In this document: positions 20,901 through 45,999 of the stretch, one piece after another
Position numbering within the stretch: position 1 is the stretch's first letter
Layout of the letters: the number at the start of each line of letters is the position of its first letter
IMG/VR virus record: IMGVR_UViG_3300031785_000002
Location: 1 to 57,033 of that record
DNA: 57,033 nt
Direction: 5' to 3' (one strand)
From: a virus
Lineage: Duplodnaviria > Caudoviricetes
Notes under the pieces: model-generated
What the model saw: only the letters and a program-made list of their open reading frames with translations
Told to the model about the DNA's origin: nothing
Database searches by the model: none
Translations under genes and position numbers: made by a program

Positions 20901-21052
20901 ATGCGAGAAACAGACTTCTGCGTAAGATGAGACAGGTCAAAGACAATCCAAGATTACCAGAAGAGCAAAAGGACAAAATTATCAAAAGACTTGGCGATCA
21001 GCTTCAGACTGTTATCACCAGAGCAAACAAGCTGATGAACGAAAACCTATAA
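11981..21052 (+). CDS. giant internal virion polyvalent protein (zincin metallopeptidase + effector domains + LPD38-like C-terminus)
   Basis: HEVIH at about 14087 with distal EEAVAE; G.YHI...H nuclease-like motif at about 17753; C-terminal ENAIRVATF/NVTVDFAKGG/FYNASLQG/IPMPYG motifs. Confidence 0.75.
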   Translation: MGQYYVQGSSGKYYSFNISGQSPNDAEQGKIQQILQQNNDSLIGGQPTSEEKGGFGAALSGGIDTLQLGFGSAIEGLGESTDIDFLKEYGKEVVETNKQQLADNEQYRTRIDDITGVGSALSFAGQAIVEQVPQIGSTLAGAYAGAKVGAALGPKGAIVGGIAGGVSANLPFFYGMNREAQKDVSPVVDEGIAALTAIPQSILDFIADRIVVGAIFTPKFINGGGIFSRIAKGAGAGAAAEVPTELGQQVLERLQAGKELASEEAIKEYRDVAITAGLVGGSIRGTSNLIAGDRNKKDHAEKTRQLDEDFRELQQEVHGNAALGLKKKNELAPDPSVKSEVIKQGNQVEAQQQAILKAQEAAVAGTSRLNLKRLSEEEQSTLGQYRQAIGSSQRPFTTVAELRDAGLTDRADSIQEQQLGVLNAKMEDRATVKHKFTQAQYDAAVERVKRDGVAEVANIRDAAKTEKGNKPAESVAESIRDEMIANRVIKKINNSEYVPLSEEDVAADPATELRALLSREQKKLESKRKAKEDMKERQRALLQSWDGSSPQESALEVTQKEDARIDSDIAVSEKTVKNIQRQIDSIDARSGAAGQLAKQTFTAEDSMLALRAAQEASKAKPRAEYETRKKEIAKKIESYAKKDLGLKGFKFSFEDELGGSRPGTVGQGYYDPKQKLIAIAVGIYDPNMSDADYIARLKGVMNHEVIHALRDARLFTDAEFQTLVNAANKRKVTVVRNGENVQRDYNFVDRALKLNRRRDGETDAQFTARVNEEAVAEMFRSYADGRLKVAGKPLSLFKRIINFFLGVKSAHIDTGFDSVDAIFEDIKTGKIGSRSQTDLEGRVRRRGDPVQEAVDELAIESAYTAFDADDPEDYVAMSVADRDFSEVGDVSILPDEALQNAQFIRANKQKSTDQKKIMGKLFANRDLDDGTIVSIRPNLNGFIEGDNGRLQMTQTVHEGRNYSTALGYDIFATVSNPEMLVSPAKRRDIYNGETPKGAKQDKVPMASGSGGYVNMTRGEAELIINNPDHVLSFNPGSKKREVVGHHLFVDEKGYAVEKVDGVGVHFGGKIFVKGKLVHYTSENAPQPLDGLPTSVKYIDNSEKDFSEVFSPELPMAQTDKVGVIAHKLPKELLVQGTGEKATIPVPQAFTPNNKGTVFNNIDRLKEKHPDAMSSAQAFMRMQQDAMGGEFVPLPPLNAINYANDPMRMAAKLRQLTPELKAGVDEGFSYVSQIKSLYDSGQATPEMTLKLFLWGILSRGAGPVQQEAAYIDIVEDATPLIKKAGRGFFTQDDIDTWKRTVKKYLPAGSPGRQVTMNVNAAGKLMFEMSKRSPQNNNITVGEEIHQLMLNNNVSGRAVRRAFLSLTNKAGIDNKVVSFVLLVGGKTDLLIMDRIQTSNMFDDGRFGGANLYDGIFLGTYNQKNGKPYNDGLAKLLIGPRGSLVTEFMEDGIRPNVELAYGIVGRPEDASLGRFHWESWVIEGEQVVNHSTLAAIAENNPVGHAVTEGKPFTFSSGMTYRRAPSGAVVEYPLSDGSPVFMTPTRFKAFTKRLSDKGVKDGIYPQGFKVSDATAQPWYTLPEVNRSKLDEIAKQFENARPNGSLRDGTERAGKDTVTIKRGDGRKPERTDGRDFSSVPAVEGLNTLKDFIRNNPDGYTLNSQGVLIPPGTPDSGIAVAPIKAAELIVGPDIPLEVLREYVENAKSVSEVLDQEVFLGGWLNEADNQYYLDNAILVRDKVEALYIAEAAEQEAIYDLTVPPYGQEIVTNEGIKQLQETGIYRDNIAERYRRGIDEASRLFRKSRLSNPEQGRVERARDADLLDIFSQDDAFTERLSQDDLQQLQEVQELFSSINESPRDFMEVPSNPSAPIANPVAVRARNRGETVANPYLFGVIEDGGRKYAVSLLAGQHAEGQSREERPVPTMGSFGLYHIHQRGHDKELTDNSKFPSVEEAIYATLRQWDRQGRSDGEVIVIPDGGDFNMDLRMEWKSPSHKSPPLVLSLQYIANRKNPFYTVRTFYPELSDTSYKGLMKEKKVGRFDEMSVPLAPETVRLGQQITENQHHIVYSKSYDVLSKAMKMIPLVSDQKAEDITKEFIMRFQDRMLPVGQIIDELRSKGANITDALDTYQKESLYHGITGERINTATDGLYKPTAELVSTLDVDADFDALDSEFAKYSFETTGSKKVAAIEAYLYALHAKERNEYIRTIDPSNDSGSGMDDAQADRILNWERSLNETERAKFFEIRSRVRDIIADTNKIRRDAGLIPENFEEDPAAIDEEGKEFKPPPVYSDYVPLRGILDPMGEANEDASFAGTGGASYSVRGREDKRALGRDTYPTNLLAGVFMQHQNSIIRSEKNEVAKSFLNLLKANRDGMADYAIELKTMPMKRGIVNGTVRVIPDLTASQDPSILQVKQNGNVTRIRLKDARLARALNGSVGVSPQTSNALTRSLGVLNRYLSNINTSFNPEFLVTNMFRDIQTAGVNVNQYERAGLTKEVMKNFKQAFKGVRDVVRTEGQASNITREMAEKADFDIDKISNADLFRLFQIYGGQNATNMMSDLADQVNNVNSLVGDIAESGARGQWNKIKNSFVGEKTGSLLKLLEDYNTVVENAIRVATFKALAPKIGFQKAAFAARNVTVDFAKGGEYKNAMNSAYLFYNASLQGSFALLNAATRSAKVRKIWAGLIVFGIVQDQLNAAFSEEDEDGELVYDKTPQYILEHNMIFPMFGLGPTERSELAIPMPYGLNMAVNFGRSLSRYARGAYTVGEAGSSIIGTAVDTINPLGGTNNFFNFVAPTIFDPFIDIYSNEEEFSGRPITKETSPFDPTPPPDSQLYWSTTSPSAKWIAANLNSLTGGNAIQSGIVDVSPDLLEYWVGFLTGGAGMFAQRSVDLATETIPTALTEGFEDEMVRQIPFARKVFYSVSEREDLSGFIENRNKVLQAQELLKSALEAGDPAQARSVRQRYATELRISGQVKALNNARNRLLRKMRQVKDNPRLPEEQKDKIIKRLGDQLQTVITRANKLMNENL

Positions 21053-29021: not shown

Positions 29022-29834
29022 TCAAAGTTGCTTGGTTAGGTGTGCAACAGTACGCCGTTGCAACAGTTTGTGAGCCTTGCCCAGATTGACACCGAAAGCG
29101 TGTGGAATGTCCATGCTACCAGTATACTTGCAGACTAGTGGCAACTCAGCGCTATGGTCACTGGACTGATGGGTCACCAGCCAGCCGTTCATGTCGTAGC
29201 ACTTGCCATGCTTGAACCCGACAGCTTGAACTTCAAAGGCGTTCATGCCATCTTCGTCTACATACTTAACAGAACGAGGCTTGCACCTAAGAACAAACAG
29301 TGTACCCTCTGGCGCTTTTATCAGGCCAAAGCCACGCTTACCAACAGACTTGAACCACGCTACGCCGACTGTTACGTCATTGCGTAAATTCCATTTCGTG
29401 CTTGCGTCATTGTGTTCTGCCCCAACTTCATAACCAGCGCCAATATGCAGGTCTATGCTTGTGCGTGGAAATGCGTTAGATAGCAAGTCATCAGCACGTC
29501 TTTTAGCGTATTTCCCTGCACGTTTTACAGGGGCATACTCTTCAACGCCGCCTCGCAACTCACTTCGCACATGGGCTATGCTATTGCGTAGTTCTTTTAA
29601 ATAACAGGCAAGCCCATCCCAAACATCCCTGCTACCAGTTTCCTGTCGTAGCCTTTCTTCTACTTGTGACATTTTTTCCATGAGGCCATGCTTTGCGCGA
29701 GAACTGTATTGGCCTGTTTCGCAAATCTGCCCAGCCACATCTTTTGGCATTATATCTTTCCACTGACGCTGACACTCAGCAATCTGCTGTTTAATAAATT
29801 GCATACGTCTGTGCATTTCGATTGTGTATTTCAT
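29022..29834 (-). CDS. hypothetical protein
   Basis: 270-aa ORF, GGGAG RBS. Confidence 0.65.
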   Translation of the reverse strand: MKYTIEMHRRMQFIKQQIAECQRQWKDIMPKDVAGQICETGQYSSRAKHGLMEKMSQVEERLRQETGSRDVWDGLACYLKELRNSIAHVRSELRGGVEEYAPVKRAGKYAKRRADDLLSNAFPRTSIDLHIGAGYEVGAEHNDASTKWNLRNDVTVGVAWFKSVGKRGFGLIKAPEGTLFVLRCKPRSVKYVDEDGMNAFEVQAVGFKHGKCYDMNGWLVTHQSSDHSAELPLVCKYTGSMDIPHAFGVNLGKAHKLLQRRTVAHLTKQL

Positions 29835-33149: not shown

Positions 33150-33181
33150 TTGGTACTCCAAAAGATTGTTGATAAAAAGTA

Positions 33182-33248
33182 GCAGGACGCTACGACACCG
33201 CAGGGCGCGGTGTTTCGGGCGTGTCCTACGCGCCCATCATCAGGTAGC
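33182..33248 (-). ncRNA. type I hammerhead ribozyme with loop II pseudoknot
   Basis: GCUAC-CUGAUGA-U-GGGCG-cguaggaca-CGCCC-GAAA-CACCGC-gcccu-GCGGUG-UC/GUAGC-GUCCUGC; all three stems and core present. Confidence 0.9.
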
Positions 33249-33256
33249 TTTAAAAA

Positions 33257-33544
33257 TCAGTCATCTGGAAACTCCTTATCCAAGTGATTGATAATATCGT
33301 TTGGCAGATAATTACGGGCATCGTCATAGCCGATTGAAAGGTCATCTCCTGCATAGACAGACTTGCCGTCCTTTTTGATGTCAAAGATCATGTAATTGTG
33401 ACAGCCCCAGCTATCCGTCTCGACCTCATAGCCAAGGCTCTCAATAGCATCCACAACTAAATGTGTGCCGTTCCAACCATCCCCATCATCAAAGCCAAAC
33501 TTGTCGAACGCCTCTTGCCACGTCCATTCTACAATCGTTTTCAT
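33257..33544 (-). CDS. acidic hypothetical early protein
   Basis: GGAG RBS; D/E-rich 95 aa. Confidence 0.65.
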   Translation of the reverse strand: MKTIVEWTWQEAFDKFGFDDGDGWNGTHLVVDAIESLGYEVETDSWGCHNYMIFDIKKDGKSVYAGDDLSIGYDDARNYLPNDIINHLDKEFPDD

Positions 33545-33546
33545 CT

Positions 33547-33747
33547 TTATATCTCCACTTGGCCGTAGCGTTCATCATCATACGATTGTGACATTGCCTC
33601 AAGTACGGCAGGGTCAAGCATATAAGACTTCATTACTGGCTTGTTGCCATCAGCCTTTAACTTGTCCATGACCTGTACGGCCTGAGATAAAACCAGCCCA
33701 ACATATGTCAGGCCGCCATTTACATAGATGTGGAAGTATTCAGTCAT
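33547..33747 (-). CDS. hypothetical early protein
   Basis: Coupled TAATG junction. Confidence 0.55.
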   Translation of the reverse strand: MTEYFHIYVNGGLTYVGLVLSQAVQVMDKLKADGNKPVMKSYMLDPAVLEAMSQSYDDERYGQVEI

Positions 33748-33929
33748 TATTTATTTCCCTTTTCTTTAAGCATTGCCTTAACCTCAAGTGCGTCACTGTG
33801 GTCAGGGTCATAGTAAGTTGAACTGATAAACTTGCCGTTATGCTTTACCAGCAAAGGATGTTCATCACCGTATGTTGGGTGTTCATAAAATGAAACGCCA
33901 GCAATTGAGTAAAGATAAGTGGGTTGCAT
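33747..33929 (-). CDS. 60-aa hypothetical early protein (FYEHP.YGDE motif)
   Basis: AGGAG RBS then ATG 33929; the longer ORF-track call runs through structured RNA and promoter. Confidence 0.6.
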   Translation of the reverse strand: MQPTYLYSIAGVSFYEHPTYGDEHPLLVKHNGKFISSTYYDPDHSDALEVKAMLKEKGNK

Positions 33930-33932
33930 CTG

Positions 33933-33997
33933 ATATTCTCCTGTTTCGTTTGGTGTCTCTTCATAACTGGCTACCAATGCCAGCGACAGGAAAACAC
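33933..33997 (-). ncRNA. type III hammerhead-like element with variant core
   Basis: UCCUGUC/GCUGGC-auuggua-GCCAGU-UAUGAAGA-G-acaccaaa-C-GAAA-CAGGA; loop-loop UUGGU/ACCAA. Confidence 0.6.
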
Positions 33998-34042
33998 TTG
34001 TCCCTCTTAACGCTACTGCGCCAGTGTTGGGGTTCGTGTTGA

Positions 34043-34176
34043 GAGCCTTGCCAGTCGTGCCGCGATAAATCGCGCTGTTCGCCAGAACAGGTGCTGGGAC
34101 GTTTAACCCTAGAGGGTACTCAATCCGTGCGTCCTGAAGGAGGGGCGGCAGAGCCGCGCTTGCTACCAGCAGGCTC
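34043..34176 (-). ncRNA. multibranch structured RNA of unknown family
   Basis: 12-bp closing stem plus five internal helices; starts at predicted TSS. Confidence 0.6.
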
Positions 34177-34180
34177 CTTT

Positions 34181-34209
34181 TAAATAAACCATCTAAAATG
34201 TATTGTAAA
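34181..34209 (-). promoter_or_regulatory. early sigma70-like promoter
   Basis: TTTACA-N17-TATTTA with AT-rich upstream region. Confidence 0.6.
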
Positions 34210-34422
34210 CCCCTAAATGTACTATTAGTACAAAATAATTTAAAATAATTATGGGGCTTATCGACACTATATATATGCAGAAAACCCTTTTTTGGGGGTG
34301 TCGGATTATTGACGCTTAAAATGCTTAAAAATGTTGACAAAACCTAAAACGCTCACTGAGCGCTATCAGCGGCTAACCGTGTATCATTCCAAGCAAAAAT
34401 ACCTAAAACCTCTCAGTGGGGC

Positions 34423-34437
34423 TTAAAACGCCATTAA
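34423..34437 (+). promoter_or_regulatory. CtrA-like box
   Basis: TTAA-AACGCCA-TTAA (TTAA-N7-TTAA). Confidence 0.4.
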
Positions 34438-34444
34438 ACGGCAT

Positions 34445-34459
34445 GAACAAAACAAGAAC
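34445..34459. promoter_or_regulatory. alphaproteobacterial LexA-type box 1
   Basis: GAAC-AAAACAA-GAAC. Confidence 0.6.
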
Positions 34460-34490
34460 ATTGCCTGTTTAACTAAAAATAGGTTAATGA

Positions 34491-34505
34491 GAACGAAACA
34501 GGAAC
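34491..34505. promoter_or_regulatory. alphaproteobacterial LexA-type box 2
   Basis: GAAC-GAAACAG-GAAC. Confidence 0.6.
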
Positions 34506-34617
34506 AAAGTGCTGGGTGGTGGTAGCGTGTCTGGGCTGTTATATTTGTACTGGTAGTACAATTTCAAAAAGCCCGACCAAGCGATAGCGCATAGTTGCGG
34601 CACATAGGGATAGAGAG

Positions 34618-35094
34618 ATGAGTAAAGATAAAGACAAACATCCACACCTGACAATAGTGTCAGATGAAGGTGACAAGTTAACGGCTAAACAGGAACACTT
34701 CTGTCAGCTAGTCGCACAAGGTCAGACACTGACTGATGCCTATAAAACGGCATATAACGTCAAGGAAGGCACAAAGCCTTCTACAGTATGGGTAAACGCC
34801 TCAAACCTAGCGACAAAGAACACTAAGGTTACAAGTAGGATAAAGGCCATTACTGAGGAAATCACCGCACGAAAGCGGACAGACGAGGACCGCCTCAGAA
34901 TATGGGTGACTGACAGGCTCAAGGAAGAGGCAGTGTCCGGCAGTGATACGTCACGGGTCTCAGCCCTCACCCAGTTGGGAAGGTCCATAGGTATGTTTTC
35001 AGATAATGTGGTGACAGATGAAAATTCAAACAGGTCAGCGTCTGAGATTGAGGCCGATTTGCAGAGGCGTTTGGCGTTGCTAATGGGCGAGTGA
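34618..35094 (+). CDS. terS: terminase small subunit
   Basis: LTAKQEHFCQLVAQG..LTDAY..AY HTH; RVSAL..LGR.IGMF. Confidence 0.75.
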   Translation: MSKDKDKHPHLTIVSDEGDKLTAKQEHFCQLVAQGQTLTDAYKTAYNVKEGTKPSTVWVNASNLATKNTKVTSRIKAITEEITARKRTDEDRLRIWVTDRLKEEAVSGSDTSRVSALTQLGRSIGMFSDNVVTDENSNRSASEIEADLQRRLALLMGE

Positions 35095-44488: not shown

Positions 44489-45394
44489 ATGGCTATAACA
44501 CGCGCACAACTCCTGAAGGAACTGTTACCGGGTCTTAACGCACTGTTCGGTTTGGAATACGAAAAGTATGAAAATGAACACGCAGAAATCTATGAAACTG
44601 AAACATCAGAGCGTAGCTTCGAGGAAGAAGTAAAGCTGTCTGGTTTCGGAGCCGCTCCCGTAAAACCGGAGGGGTCAGCGATTTCGTTTGACAGCGCTCA
44701 GGAATCCTTCACAGCCCGTTACAACCACGAAACTGTGGCAATGGGCTTTTCTGTAACTGAAGAAGCAATGGAAGATAATTTGTATGATGCGCTTTCAGCA
44801 CGTTATACAAAGTCTCTTGCCCGTGCGATGGCATATACCAAGCAGGTAAAAGCCGCCGCGCTGCTAAACAATGGTTTCACCACCTTTCAATCAGGTGATG
44901 GGGTAACATTGTTTAATGCTTCTCACCCGACTGTACAGGGTGGAACTAACTCAAATCGTCCAAGCACAAATGCTGACTTGAACGAGACTTCTTTGGAAGA
45001 AGCAGTTATTAATATTGCCGCATTCGTTGATGAGCGTGGCCTGTTGATTGCCGCTCGTCCACGTAAGTTGGTTATTCCACCAGCATTGATGTTTGTTGCA
45101 ACTCGTCTACTACAGACAGATTTGCGTGTCGGCACAGCCGATAACGACATCAACGCTATTCGGTCAAACGGTTCGATTCCAGAAGGATTCCGTGTCAATC
45201 ACTACCTGACTGACAACGATGCGTTCTTCCTGACAACCGATGTGCCGAACGGCATGAAGCATTTTGTCCGTACACCAATGTCAACATCTATGGATGGTGA
45301 CTTTGACACAGGCAATGTTCGCTACAAGGCCCGTGAGCGTTACAGCTTCGGTGTGTCCGACCCATTAGGCATTTATGGCTCACCCGGAGCGTAA
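44489..45394 (+). CDS. major capsid protein
   Basis: MAITRAQLLKELLPGLNALFGLEY...GDFDTGNVRYKARERYSFG. Confidence 0.9.
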   Translation: MAITRAQLLKELLPGLNALFGLEYEKYENEHAEIYETETSERSFEEEVKLSGFGAAPVKPEGSAISFDSAQESFTARYNHETVAMGFSVTEEAMEDNLYDALSARYTKSLARAMAYTKQVKAAALLNNGFTTFQSGDGVTLFNASHPTVQGGTNSNRPSTNADLNETSLEEAVINIAAFVDERGLLIAARPRKLVIPPALMFVATRLLQTDLRVGTADNDINAIRSNGSIPEGFRVNHYLTDNDAFFLTTDVPNGMKHFVRTPMSTSMDGDFDTGNVRYKARERYSFGVSDPLGIYGSPGA

Positions 45395-45466: not shown

Positions 45467-45511
45467 CCTTGACAGTCGCATACTGCGGCTGACACTAGCC
45501 AAGACAAGGAG
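45467..45511 (+). promoter_or_regulatory. structured 5' leader masking the RBS
   Basis: TATAAT at 45452; CCTTG/CAAGG stem overlapping AAGGAG; inner CAGTCGC/GCGGCTG hairpin. Confidence 0.45.
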
Positions 45512-45516
45512 TTCCC

Positions 45517-45999
45517 ATGGCTAATACTACTTTTAGCGGTCCCGTCCGCTCAGAAAACGGTTTCAAGAATGTTATTAAAAGCGCGACAACTGGTGACCTT
45601 ACCAGTGAGATGACACTTTCTGTTTACACTGCTACTGTAACAGTTGCCAGTGGTGCTACTACAGGAAAAGAATCTGCTATTGGCATTCCATCAAACTTTA
45701 TTCCTCTGGCTGTTATGGTCGCCGTTACAGGCGCGGCGTCTAACAACGTAAACCTAGTTGATATCGGCACAGACGCAGACACAGATGGATTTGTTGACGG
45801 CATTGCCGCCGCAGTAAACTCAACTGGTTTCAAAGGCTTTTTCCCATGTAATGGTGTGTTGGGTATGTCTGGCGGCACAACAACAGCCGCTACAGAAACA
45901 GCAGATGAGGTTGAGATTGTTCTGTCCGGTGACCCCGGAGCAGACACAACTGTAGTTATGAAGTTTATGGGTATTTCTAGCTCATCAGACGCTTCGTAG
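45517..45999 (+). CDS. minor capsid/decoration protein
   Basis: MANTTFSGPVRSENGF N-terminus. Confidence 0.55.
   Translation: MANTTFSGPVRSENGFKNVIKSATTGDLTSEMTLSVYTATVTVASGATTGKESAIGIPSNFIPLAVMVAVTGAASNNVNLVDIGTDADTDGFVDGIAAAVNSTGFKGFFPCNGVLGMSGGTTTAATETADEVEIVLSGDPGADTTVVMKFMGISSSSDAS

Follow-up and report, generated by a model that had tools for sequence, protein, structure and literature searches.

A conserved structured leader at the head of a marine phage's early operon, apparently exchangeable as a cassette and bounded by a hammerhead-like module

Introduction

The divergent control region of a marine phage genome carries, on the strand of its leftward genes, a G+C-rich stretch that a preliminary description read as a multibranch RNA at the very start of the early transcript, with a 197-aa open reading frame over the same bases as the competing reading. 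We ask here whether this stretch is an RNA, a coding sequence or a DNA element, where it begins and ends, and what it may do early in infection.

The window analysed throughout is IMG/VR virus record IMGVR_UViG_3300031785_000002 (57,033 bases, estimated 96% complete). Its leftward genes run from about 33930 down to 27205 and comprise small ORFs, a conserved 231-aa protein, an AAA ATPase, a DUF2201/VWA protein and others, with a primase-helicase, a PD-(D/E)XK nuclease and a Sak annealing protein nearby; terS, terL and the virion genes are read rightward from 34618. The element under study, which we call the type A leader (34043-34176), sits on the minus strand of the divergent control region (690 bases), where the leftward replication/recombination (early) operon begins. 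The features needed below are as follows.

34546-34560, second palindrome TGTAC-N5-GTACA at the terS promoter, twin of that at 34218-34232
34218-34232, unstranded, operator-like palindrome TGTAC-N5-GTACA upstream of the leftward promoter
34181-34209, minus strand, putative leftward promoter, TTTACA-17 nt-TATTTA, read from the sequence
34043-34176, minus strand, domain 1 of the type A leader, with closing stem P1, P2, P3/P3b, P4 and P5 (MFE fold, alignments and pair counts)
34043-34127, minus strand, conserved 85-nt core, from P3 to the 3' strand of P1 (alignment of six sequences)
33991-34042, minus strand, 3' extension of the leader: P6 (CCCC/GGGG) enclosing a small hairpin, then a U-rich tail into the hammerhead-like module (RNAalifold and alignment)
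33938-33990, minus strand, type III hammerhead-like module (15 distinct homologues and fold)
33747-33929, minus strand, first gene of the operon, 60 aa, MQPTYLYS..., PHROG 11770, with Shine-Dalgarno (SD) sequence and AUG read from the sequence
33177-33248, minus strand, canonical type I hammerhead with a loop II/3'-tail pseudoknot (17 distinct homologues)

Related loci, designated by L numbers, were collected by a terS search (16 in viral contigs and 14 in metagenome contigs) and with a 24-mer upstream of terS (20 loci). Neither blastn with 33700-34620 nor tblastn with terS matched any of 50,697 phage records, and the relatives of terL in phage records were all distant (at most 59% identity). 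Elsewhere in the window, a single ORF of 3023 aa occupies 11981-21052 (plus) among the virion genes, and the Rfam Mu-gpT-DE RNA is found at 45467-45519 (plus; 59.1 bits, above the gathering score), just after a capsid-like gene (44489-45394).

Results

Non-coding status of the leader

The 197-aa ORF spans 33747-34340 (minus) and matches PHROG 11770 over residues 139-187 only. The matched residues belong to the 60-aa gene, which has its own AUG at 33929 behind AGGAG. In L007 a stop codon ends the frame of the long ORF within the hammerhead module, no minus-strand ORF across the L051 leader is longer than 38 aa, and indels of 1 nt and 8 nt set the homologues apart within the conserved block. These observations decide for the leader and against the rival ORF: as judged from the comparison of relatives, the 197-aa ORF is spurious and only the 60-aa first gene is its real coding part, a correction to the ORF call that stands even if the leader proves inert. 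Metatranscriptome assemblies (contigs only, from four RNA runs) contributed no contig on the leader and a single one, of 151 nt, over 33791-33941, which corresponds to the first gene; among the 24 runs listed, one RNA run carried about 6% of the sampled words of the stretch.

Promoter and operator-like sites

The hexamers TTTACA and TATTTA (34209-34181, minus) stop 4-7 nt short of G34176, with which the type A leader begins, and in the sequences of relatives every leader type is preceded, at this same spacing, by TTGACA-like and A+T-rich hexamers. Because a consensus promoter scan does not call the window's TTTACA/TATTTA site, we infer, rather than assign, a transcription start just after these hexamers. 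The palindrome TGTAC-N5-GTACA has exactly two matches in the 57-kb window against 0.02 expected, one for each divergent promoter, and the two copies are probably operators of one regulator.

On the rightward side, the terS 5' leader (34462-34506, plus) holds a conserved hairpin, GTTTAAC...GGTTAA, followed by GAACGAAACAGGAAC. A candidate hammerhead in this leader (CCUGUU-hairpin-AUGAGAACGAAACAGG) was rejected, as only GAACGAAACAGGAAC is conserved in relatives and the UGA-GA part is not. The terS leader also contains the 9-mer CGAAACAGG, the same as that of the hammerhead-like module on the opposite strand, so that the two copies form an inverted repeat spaced by about 550 bp; the window has 4 copies of CGAAACAGG where 0.39 are expected, the others being at 29713 and 52347.

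Conservation and covariation of the type A leader

The MFE fold of 34043-34176 (minus) reproduces the helices that had been proposed at first, namely the closing stem, GCGGC/GCCGC, ACCC/GGGU, CUGUUC/GAACAG and CGCGA/UCGCG. Domain 1 accordingly consists of the closing stem P1 (12 pairs with one bulge), P2 (GCGGC/GCCGC), P3/P3b (GGAU..ACCC-loop-GGGU..GUCC), P4 (CUGUUC/GAACAG) and P5 (CGCGA/UCGCG). The energy of this fold, -52.7 kcal/mol (z = -1.42), is equalled by 16 of 200 shuffles, and the plus strand folds equally well (z -1.66); as a single sequence, the window's leader folds no better than chance for such G+C-rich DNA, and the evidence for it comes from comparison with homologues instead. 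Rfam gave no match in 34043-34176 at E<=10, and the type A leaders of L050, L051, L054 and L056 were likewise without match apart from hammerheads. That the element is not tRNA-like was confirmed by ARAGORN, with 0 tRNA or tmRNA genes in the window and 0 in 14 related loci.

Six distinct type A sequences were compared (the window, the L007 group, L050, L051, L054 and L055/L056). In the core (34043-34127), 71 of the 85 positions are invariant, and four of the six helices are kept across the type with few compensatory changes, so that the RNA-like multibranch element of the preliminary description is indeed a conserved one. The window's core matches L050, L051 and L054 at 79/88, 83/97 and 77/88 positions (summary range 88-94%), as compared with 362/477, 349/477 and 170/213 for terS DNA (summary range 73-76%) and 71-72% identity for the promoter region; the flanks of the core are 71-76% identical overall. 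Since core identity exceeds that of terS and of the promoter, the core is more strongly constrained than adjacent coding DNA. The rest of the leader is far more variable, the 5' third matching these three relatives at 28/63 to 37/58 positions and the 3' part at 28/51 to 32/51 (together 44-64% identity).

Covariation within type A is thin, with four to five pairs in six sequences and most pairs invariant. When the helices first proposed are imposed on five sequences, 91.7% of 193 cells are paired with two compensatory pairs, and 137 of 500 shuffles reach this paired percentage. The RNAalifold structure of five sequences, itself derived from the same alignment, pairs 96.5% of 228 cells with five compensatory pairs (0-1 of 500 shuffles); it uses a GGAU/GUCC register and adds the 3' CCCC/GGGG helix with an inner hairpin. 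With L055 included (six sequences, still a small set), four compensatory pairs are counted. Compensatory changes are found in P2, P4 and P6b: the outer helix of P6 is kept in L055 despite a deleted inner hairpin, and the inner hairpin has two to three compensatory pairs. The 3' strand of P1, GGCAAGGCUC, is invariant, and its 5' partner varies (GAGCC, GGGUCUUGCC, or a displaced GCUUCCAG in L055) while remaining complementary; the one-sided exchanges in P1 (A-U/G-U and C-G/U-G) retain pairing in the minus-sense RNA only. Alignment-fold energies do not separate the strands (-39.8 vs -40.8 kcal/mol), so the strand assignment rests mainly on context.

Some details of the early reading are revised by the alignment. 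The GGACG/CGUCC helix is not conserved, having 72% of cells paired and forming in the window and L007 only, with the invariant GGAU/GUCC as the alternative register. The anti-SD-like CCCUCCUU said to be displayed at a junction is likewise confined to the window and L007 and absent from four of the six homologues. As for the GCAC noted three times at junctions, one copy (GGCACGACUGG) is kept, though as GGUACG in L054, while the other two belong to the window and L007 alone.

A covariance model of the type A core (R1) finds type A only in the 280,903 bases of the window and related loci, and searches of viral contigs with three further type A patterns added L055 and L056 only. Two type A patterns had 0 matches in 185,579 species genomes, and nothing points to a particular target in trans. 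Matches of the pattern CGCGATAAATCGCGCTGTTC in three large viral contigs (L038-L040) lie inside coding DNA and were discarded as chance.

Unrelated leaders in the same slot

Relatives have the promoter region and terS in common. What varies is the G+C-rich sequence separating the first gene from the leftward promoter, which falls into the following types.

Type A: window, L006/L007 group, L050, L051, L054, L055/L056 (the last two by pattern)
Type B: L002, L004/L005
Type C: L008, L010, L011, L019, L026, L027, L029-L031, L035, L043-L047, L049
Type D: L012-L014, L048

Blastn between types detects nothing significant among A, B/D and C, B and D having two blocks in common (E = 1e-9 and 8e-6), and model R1 retrieves no type B, C or D leader at E<=10. 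Type C has a conserved fold of its own, with 16 of 43 pairs compensatory in 10 sequences; from a joint alignment of B and D, which was poor, no structure was drawn. More specifically, the alignment of the window with L002 breaks off at 33990 and resumes at 34196, 205 bases in the window facing 316 unrelated bases in L002, and the window's 53-nt module is identical in L045 and L049, both of which carry it behind a type C leader. Given these alignment breaks and identical modules, the exchanged unit extends from the putative transcription start to the hammerhead site, and the cassette boundaries coincide with the predicted RNA ends. The leader body behaves as an exchangeable RNA cassette, with unrelated structured RNAs in the same slot of sister phages. 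An 8-nt complementarity between the leader (CCCAGCAC) and the terS 5' UTR (GUGCUGGG), with a seeming covariation in L007, was rejected because the same UTR variants occur with type B leaders.

The set of small genes between the leader and the 231-aa gene also varies from phage to phage. In the window, three small genes (60, 66 and 95 aa; 33257-33929, minus) are inserted between two hammerhead-type elements, ahead of the 231-aa gene; other sets are present in L007, L043, L050 and L054, and these variable genes, like their counterparts in the window, are bracketed by hammerhead-type elements. In L051, L055 and the type D loci, the 231-aa gene comes directly after leader and hammerhead. The contigs of L003, L007, L009-L013, L015-L017, L042, L044 and L049 end or start within a few hundred bases of terS, suggesting that assemblies of relatives break at the variable leader/accessory-gene region.

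Hammerhead-type elements

Every leader of type A, B or C closes with CCUGUC, after which come a covarying hairpin (loop of 6-8 nt), UGA-N(1-2)-(G/A)AG, a short loop, and CGAAACAGG(A/G)(A/G) leading into the SD. In the window the order is CCUGUC, stem I (GCUGGC-AUUGGUA-GCCAGU), UA-UGAAGAG, ACACCAAA and CGAAACAGGAG, with the SD (AGGAG) at 33938-33942 and the predicted scissile bond between 33985 and 33984. We read this layout as that of a type III hammerhead, comprising the GUC site, stem I, the core, G10.1...C11.1, GAAA and a stem III with A15.1-U16.1. The cleavage triplet GUC and the U16.1-A15.1 pair are present: CCUGUC forms five pairs with GAAACAGG, which do not vary in any of the 14 aligned or the 15 parsed modules. 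Stem I forms in 15 of 15 modules with covariation (GCUGGC/GCCAGU, GCUGGGC/GCCCAGC, GCAUGGG/CCCAUGC, UCUGGCG/CGCCAGA, ACUGGGC/GCCCAGU).

The core C3-U4-G5-A6-N7-G8-A9 is not found in the window, where UA-UGAAGA stands with C3 replaced. Six of the 15 distinct modules have C3 (three read CUGACGAG and three read CUGAAUGAG), and three of these six bear an extra base after A6; in the other nine, the window's included, UA, UU or UAU takes its place. L055 has a perfect core, CUGAUGAG, the type A leader of L007 is followed by a module with CUGACGAG, and L031, with U before U4 and A at position 8, fits the known U3-A8 covariation. In mutational work, changes of C3 cut hammerhead activity strongly. Because this defining feature is missing, we do not call the window's module an active ribozyme, and cleavage there is uncertain.

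Stem II has one or two pairs at most in these modules. G...CGAAA is invariant, and in the window only a single G-C pair can form around ACACCAAA as stem II; the loop (ACACCAAA) pairs with loop I instead (UUGGU/ACCAA). This complementarity between loops I and II covaries among the modules (GGU/ACC, CGU/ACG, UGU/ACA), with a mean run of 4.0 in cis vs 2.5 for 126 mismatched combinations.

Rfam RF00008 gave no match to the window's module at E<=10, and relatives remain below its gathering score of 48.5 (L002, 27.9 bits, E = 0.054; L051, 35.0; L054, 26.8; L010, 30.7). The L051 hit is a different, fully canonical type III hammerhead right after the type A leader (Hammerhead_3, 35.0 bits, E = 1.6e-4), and type D leaders are followed by a canonical type I hammerhead. 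From these sequence features we conclude that every leader type is bounded by a hammerhead or a derivative of one.

In most modules stem III (CCUGU/ACAGG) and the SD overlap, and in the window this stem extends to 12 pairs covering AGGAG and the spacer (MFE -20 kcal/mol, z -2.0). In L051 and L055 the ribozyme is not adjacent to the SD; masking of the SD would therefore not be its only role. Two relatives show further peculiarities. L050 (775-851, minus) has an extra hairpin, CCUGCA...UGCAGG, inserted after stem I and ahead of UGAAGAG, an unusual feature in a hammerhead. In L055 (11040-11125, minus) the core CUGAUGAG can pair with the downstream CUCAUCAG (8 pairs in the MFE fold), possibly an off-state or a post-cleavage fold. 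Complementarities of the P4 loop or J3/4 to hammerhead stem I were discarded as short, GC-rich and unconserved.

The block of three small genes that starts at the leader is closed by the type I hammerhead (33177-33248, minus), which precedes the conserved 231-aa gene. It has the core CUGAUGA(U)...GAAA...GUC, three stems and a GUC site, together with a six-pair pseudoknot between loop II (UAGGAC) and the 3' tail (GUCCUG). All 385 cells are paired across the 17 distinct homologues, and compensatory change is seen in 11 of 23 pairs, two of them in the pseudoknot, a score reached by 0 of 500 shuffles; Rfam gave no match to 33177-33248 at E<=10. The 3' part of this hammerhead can also form a terminator-like hairpin, GUAGCGUCCUGCUAC followed by U5 (33179-33193).

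Discussion

We favour, with middling confidence, the reading that the type A leader is a ribozyme-bounded early leader ncRNA, exchangeable as a cassette and acting in trans early in infection. A leader of about 190 nt would be transcribed leftward from the promoter, and since the -10 hexamer lies just upstream, its first bases would be locked in the closing stem. Its 3' boundary would be the type III hammerhead-type module that starts with CCUGUC, with CCUGU pairing in stem III with ACAGG at the ribosome-binding site of the first gene. Where relatives have a canonical core, self-cleavage after GUC would set the leader free as a separate RNA ending in a 2',3'-cyclic phosphate, leave an mRNA starting with a 5'-OH hairpin and expose the SD of the first gene. 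The released RNA would then play its part in trans, most likely by binding or decoying a host or phage factor. In the window itself, whose module has neither C3 nor a true stem II and has a longer stem III of 12 pairs, cleavage may proceed slowly or not at all, and the main effect of the leader may be to mask the SD of the first gene in cis.

The main rival to a trans decoy or regulator is a sensor acting in cis, which we hold to be unlikely but worth weighing. Here the multibranch domain, aptamer-like or sensitive to temperature or Mg, would gate CCUGUC and so control cleavage, SD access or both, as a riboswitch-ribozyme or riboswitch-SD device. Its position within a 5' leader, a multi-helix junction with invariant junction nucleotides as in riboswitch aptamers, the overlap of stem III with the SD, and alternative folds such as that of CUGAUGAG with CUCAUCAG in L055 all speak for such a device. 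However, no Rfam riboswitch matches the leader, and no conserved mutually exclusive pairing of the core with CCUGUC or the SD was found, the complementarities inspected by eye being short and unconserved. Replacement by unrelated RNAs in near-identical phages would moreover be unusual for a sensor of one ligand, and the ribozyme is uncoupled from the SD in L051 and L055.

Considerably less probable is a put-like processive antiterminator, in which the nascent leader would bind RNA polymerase and carry it through the terminator-like hairpins of the operon. The leader does come right after the promoter, hairpins of this kind exist downstream (e.g. GUAGCGUCCUGCUAC + U5 at 33179-33193), and the strong sequence conservation is what a protein-contacting RNA should have. 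Yet the hairpin at 33179-33193 is part of the type I hammerhead, unrelated RNAs fill the slot in sister phages with the same operon, and, where relatives have a canonical core, a self-cleaving motif just 3' of the RNA would cut it loose from the polymerase.

We give as little credence to a role at the DNA level, be it in a replication origin, in packaging from a site beside terS or in protein binding, with hairpins that are incidental or cruciform. The divergent control region beside terS, with its AT-rich stretch with repeats and two operator-like palindromes, would suit this reading, as would the equal folding of both strands and the many contigs of relatives that break near terS. Against it, phages with 86-88% identity in terS have unrelated sequence in place of the segment, the segment's boundaries match a promoter and a ribozyme motif on one strand, several conserved minus-strand G-U pairs become A-C mismatches on the plus strand, and loop-length indels spare the stems. 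An anti-Shine-Dalgarno decoy, in which a displayed CCCUCCUU would sequester SDs or mimic 16S rRNA, is barely credible: CCUCC could pair with AGGAG in the window and L007, but the motif is missing from L050, L051, L054 and L055 and lies in the least conserved part of the RNA, so that the alignment contradicts it.

The ribozyme-bounded leader ncRNA, which we prefer, can be extended to a bolder proposal that we advance only tentatively and consider improbable as a whole. The first transcribed position of these operons would be an RNA cassette slot, in which at least three unrelated ncRNA families of 190-330 nt are swapped between near-identical phages, with promoter and hammerhead as bounds; cleavage would both release the RNA and unmask the ribosome-binding site. 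The RNAs would be effectors of counter-defence or host takeover that diversify like anti-defence protein genes, and the modules lacking C3 and stem II would be a functional variant held by the loop-loop pseudoknot. Literature searches turned up no account of the type A leader, nor of cassettes that precede phage hammerheads as leaders; the supplements of Perreault et al. (2011) may list related metagenomic hammerheads.

If the proposal is true, phages can deliver a structured ncRNA as their first gene product, with a ribozyme as 3'-end maker and translational gate, and can exchange such RNAs as modules. It would add three or more RNA families with defined start and end, a natural example of a hammerhead coupled to SD unmasking, and a natural set of core variants (no C3, no stem II, a pseudoknot instead) for the study of catalysis. 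Even with an inert leader, two hammerhead-type elements that Rfam does not report, one canonical and one variant, are placed in the window.

The locus can be compared with several known systems. Riboswitch-ribozyme arrangements include glmS and the c-di-GMP-II riboswitch with a group I intron, and as in these, a structured 5' domain stands next to a catalytic RNA in a leader; unlike them, the present leader came with no ligand, known aptamer class or conserved switching helix in our analysis. The put RNAs of HK022 are structured RNAs formed from the first bases of phage early transcripts, independent of translation. The likeness lies in a structured RNA at the start of an early transcript; put, however, has two stem-loops in about 70 nt and stays tethered to the polymerase, whereas by its description the type A leader is a five-helix domain followed by a self-cleaving motif.

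Phage decoy RNAs, as reported for RNA anti-CRISPRs (PMC10651486) and for pseudo-ToxI of phage PhiTE (PMC3475682), are also small phage ncRNAs that vary between related phages, as counter-defence loci do. They mimic repeats of a known host system, whereas no mimicry target was found for our leader, which is also larger, multibranched and bounded by a ribozyme-type motif.

The closest parallel is with the hammerheads of phages and prophages. In the account of Perreault et al. (2011; PMC3088659), stem II may have two pairs, which is common, or even one; pseudoknots are a common tertiary contact, U3-A8 covariation is known, an A6a insertion marks a weakly active variant, and hammerheads flank genes in prophages. 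The elements described here resemble these in their pseudoknot contacts, very short stem II, core variants (A6a insertion, U3-A8) and a ribozyme at the transcript head. Types I and III lie between small genes of a phage operon, and the window's three small genes between two hammerhead-type elements recall the gene-flanking arrangement. Set against those hammerheads, stem III here contains the SD and the window's copy has no C3. Above all, the ribozyme-type module follows a conserved structured leader of about 190 nt that is itself under selection and exchanged as a cassette.
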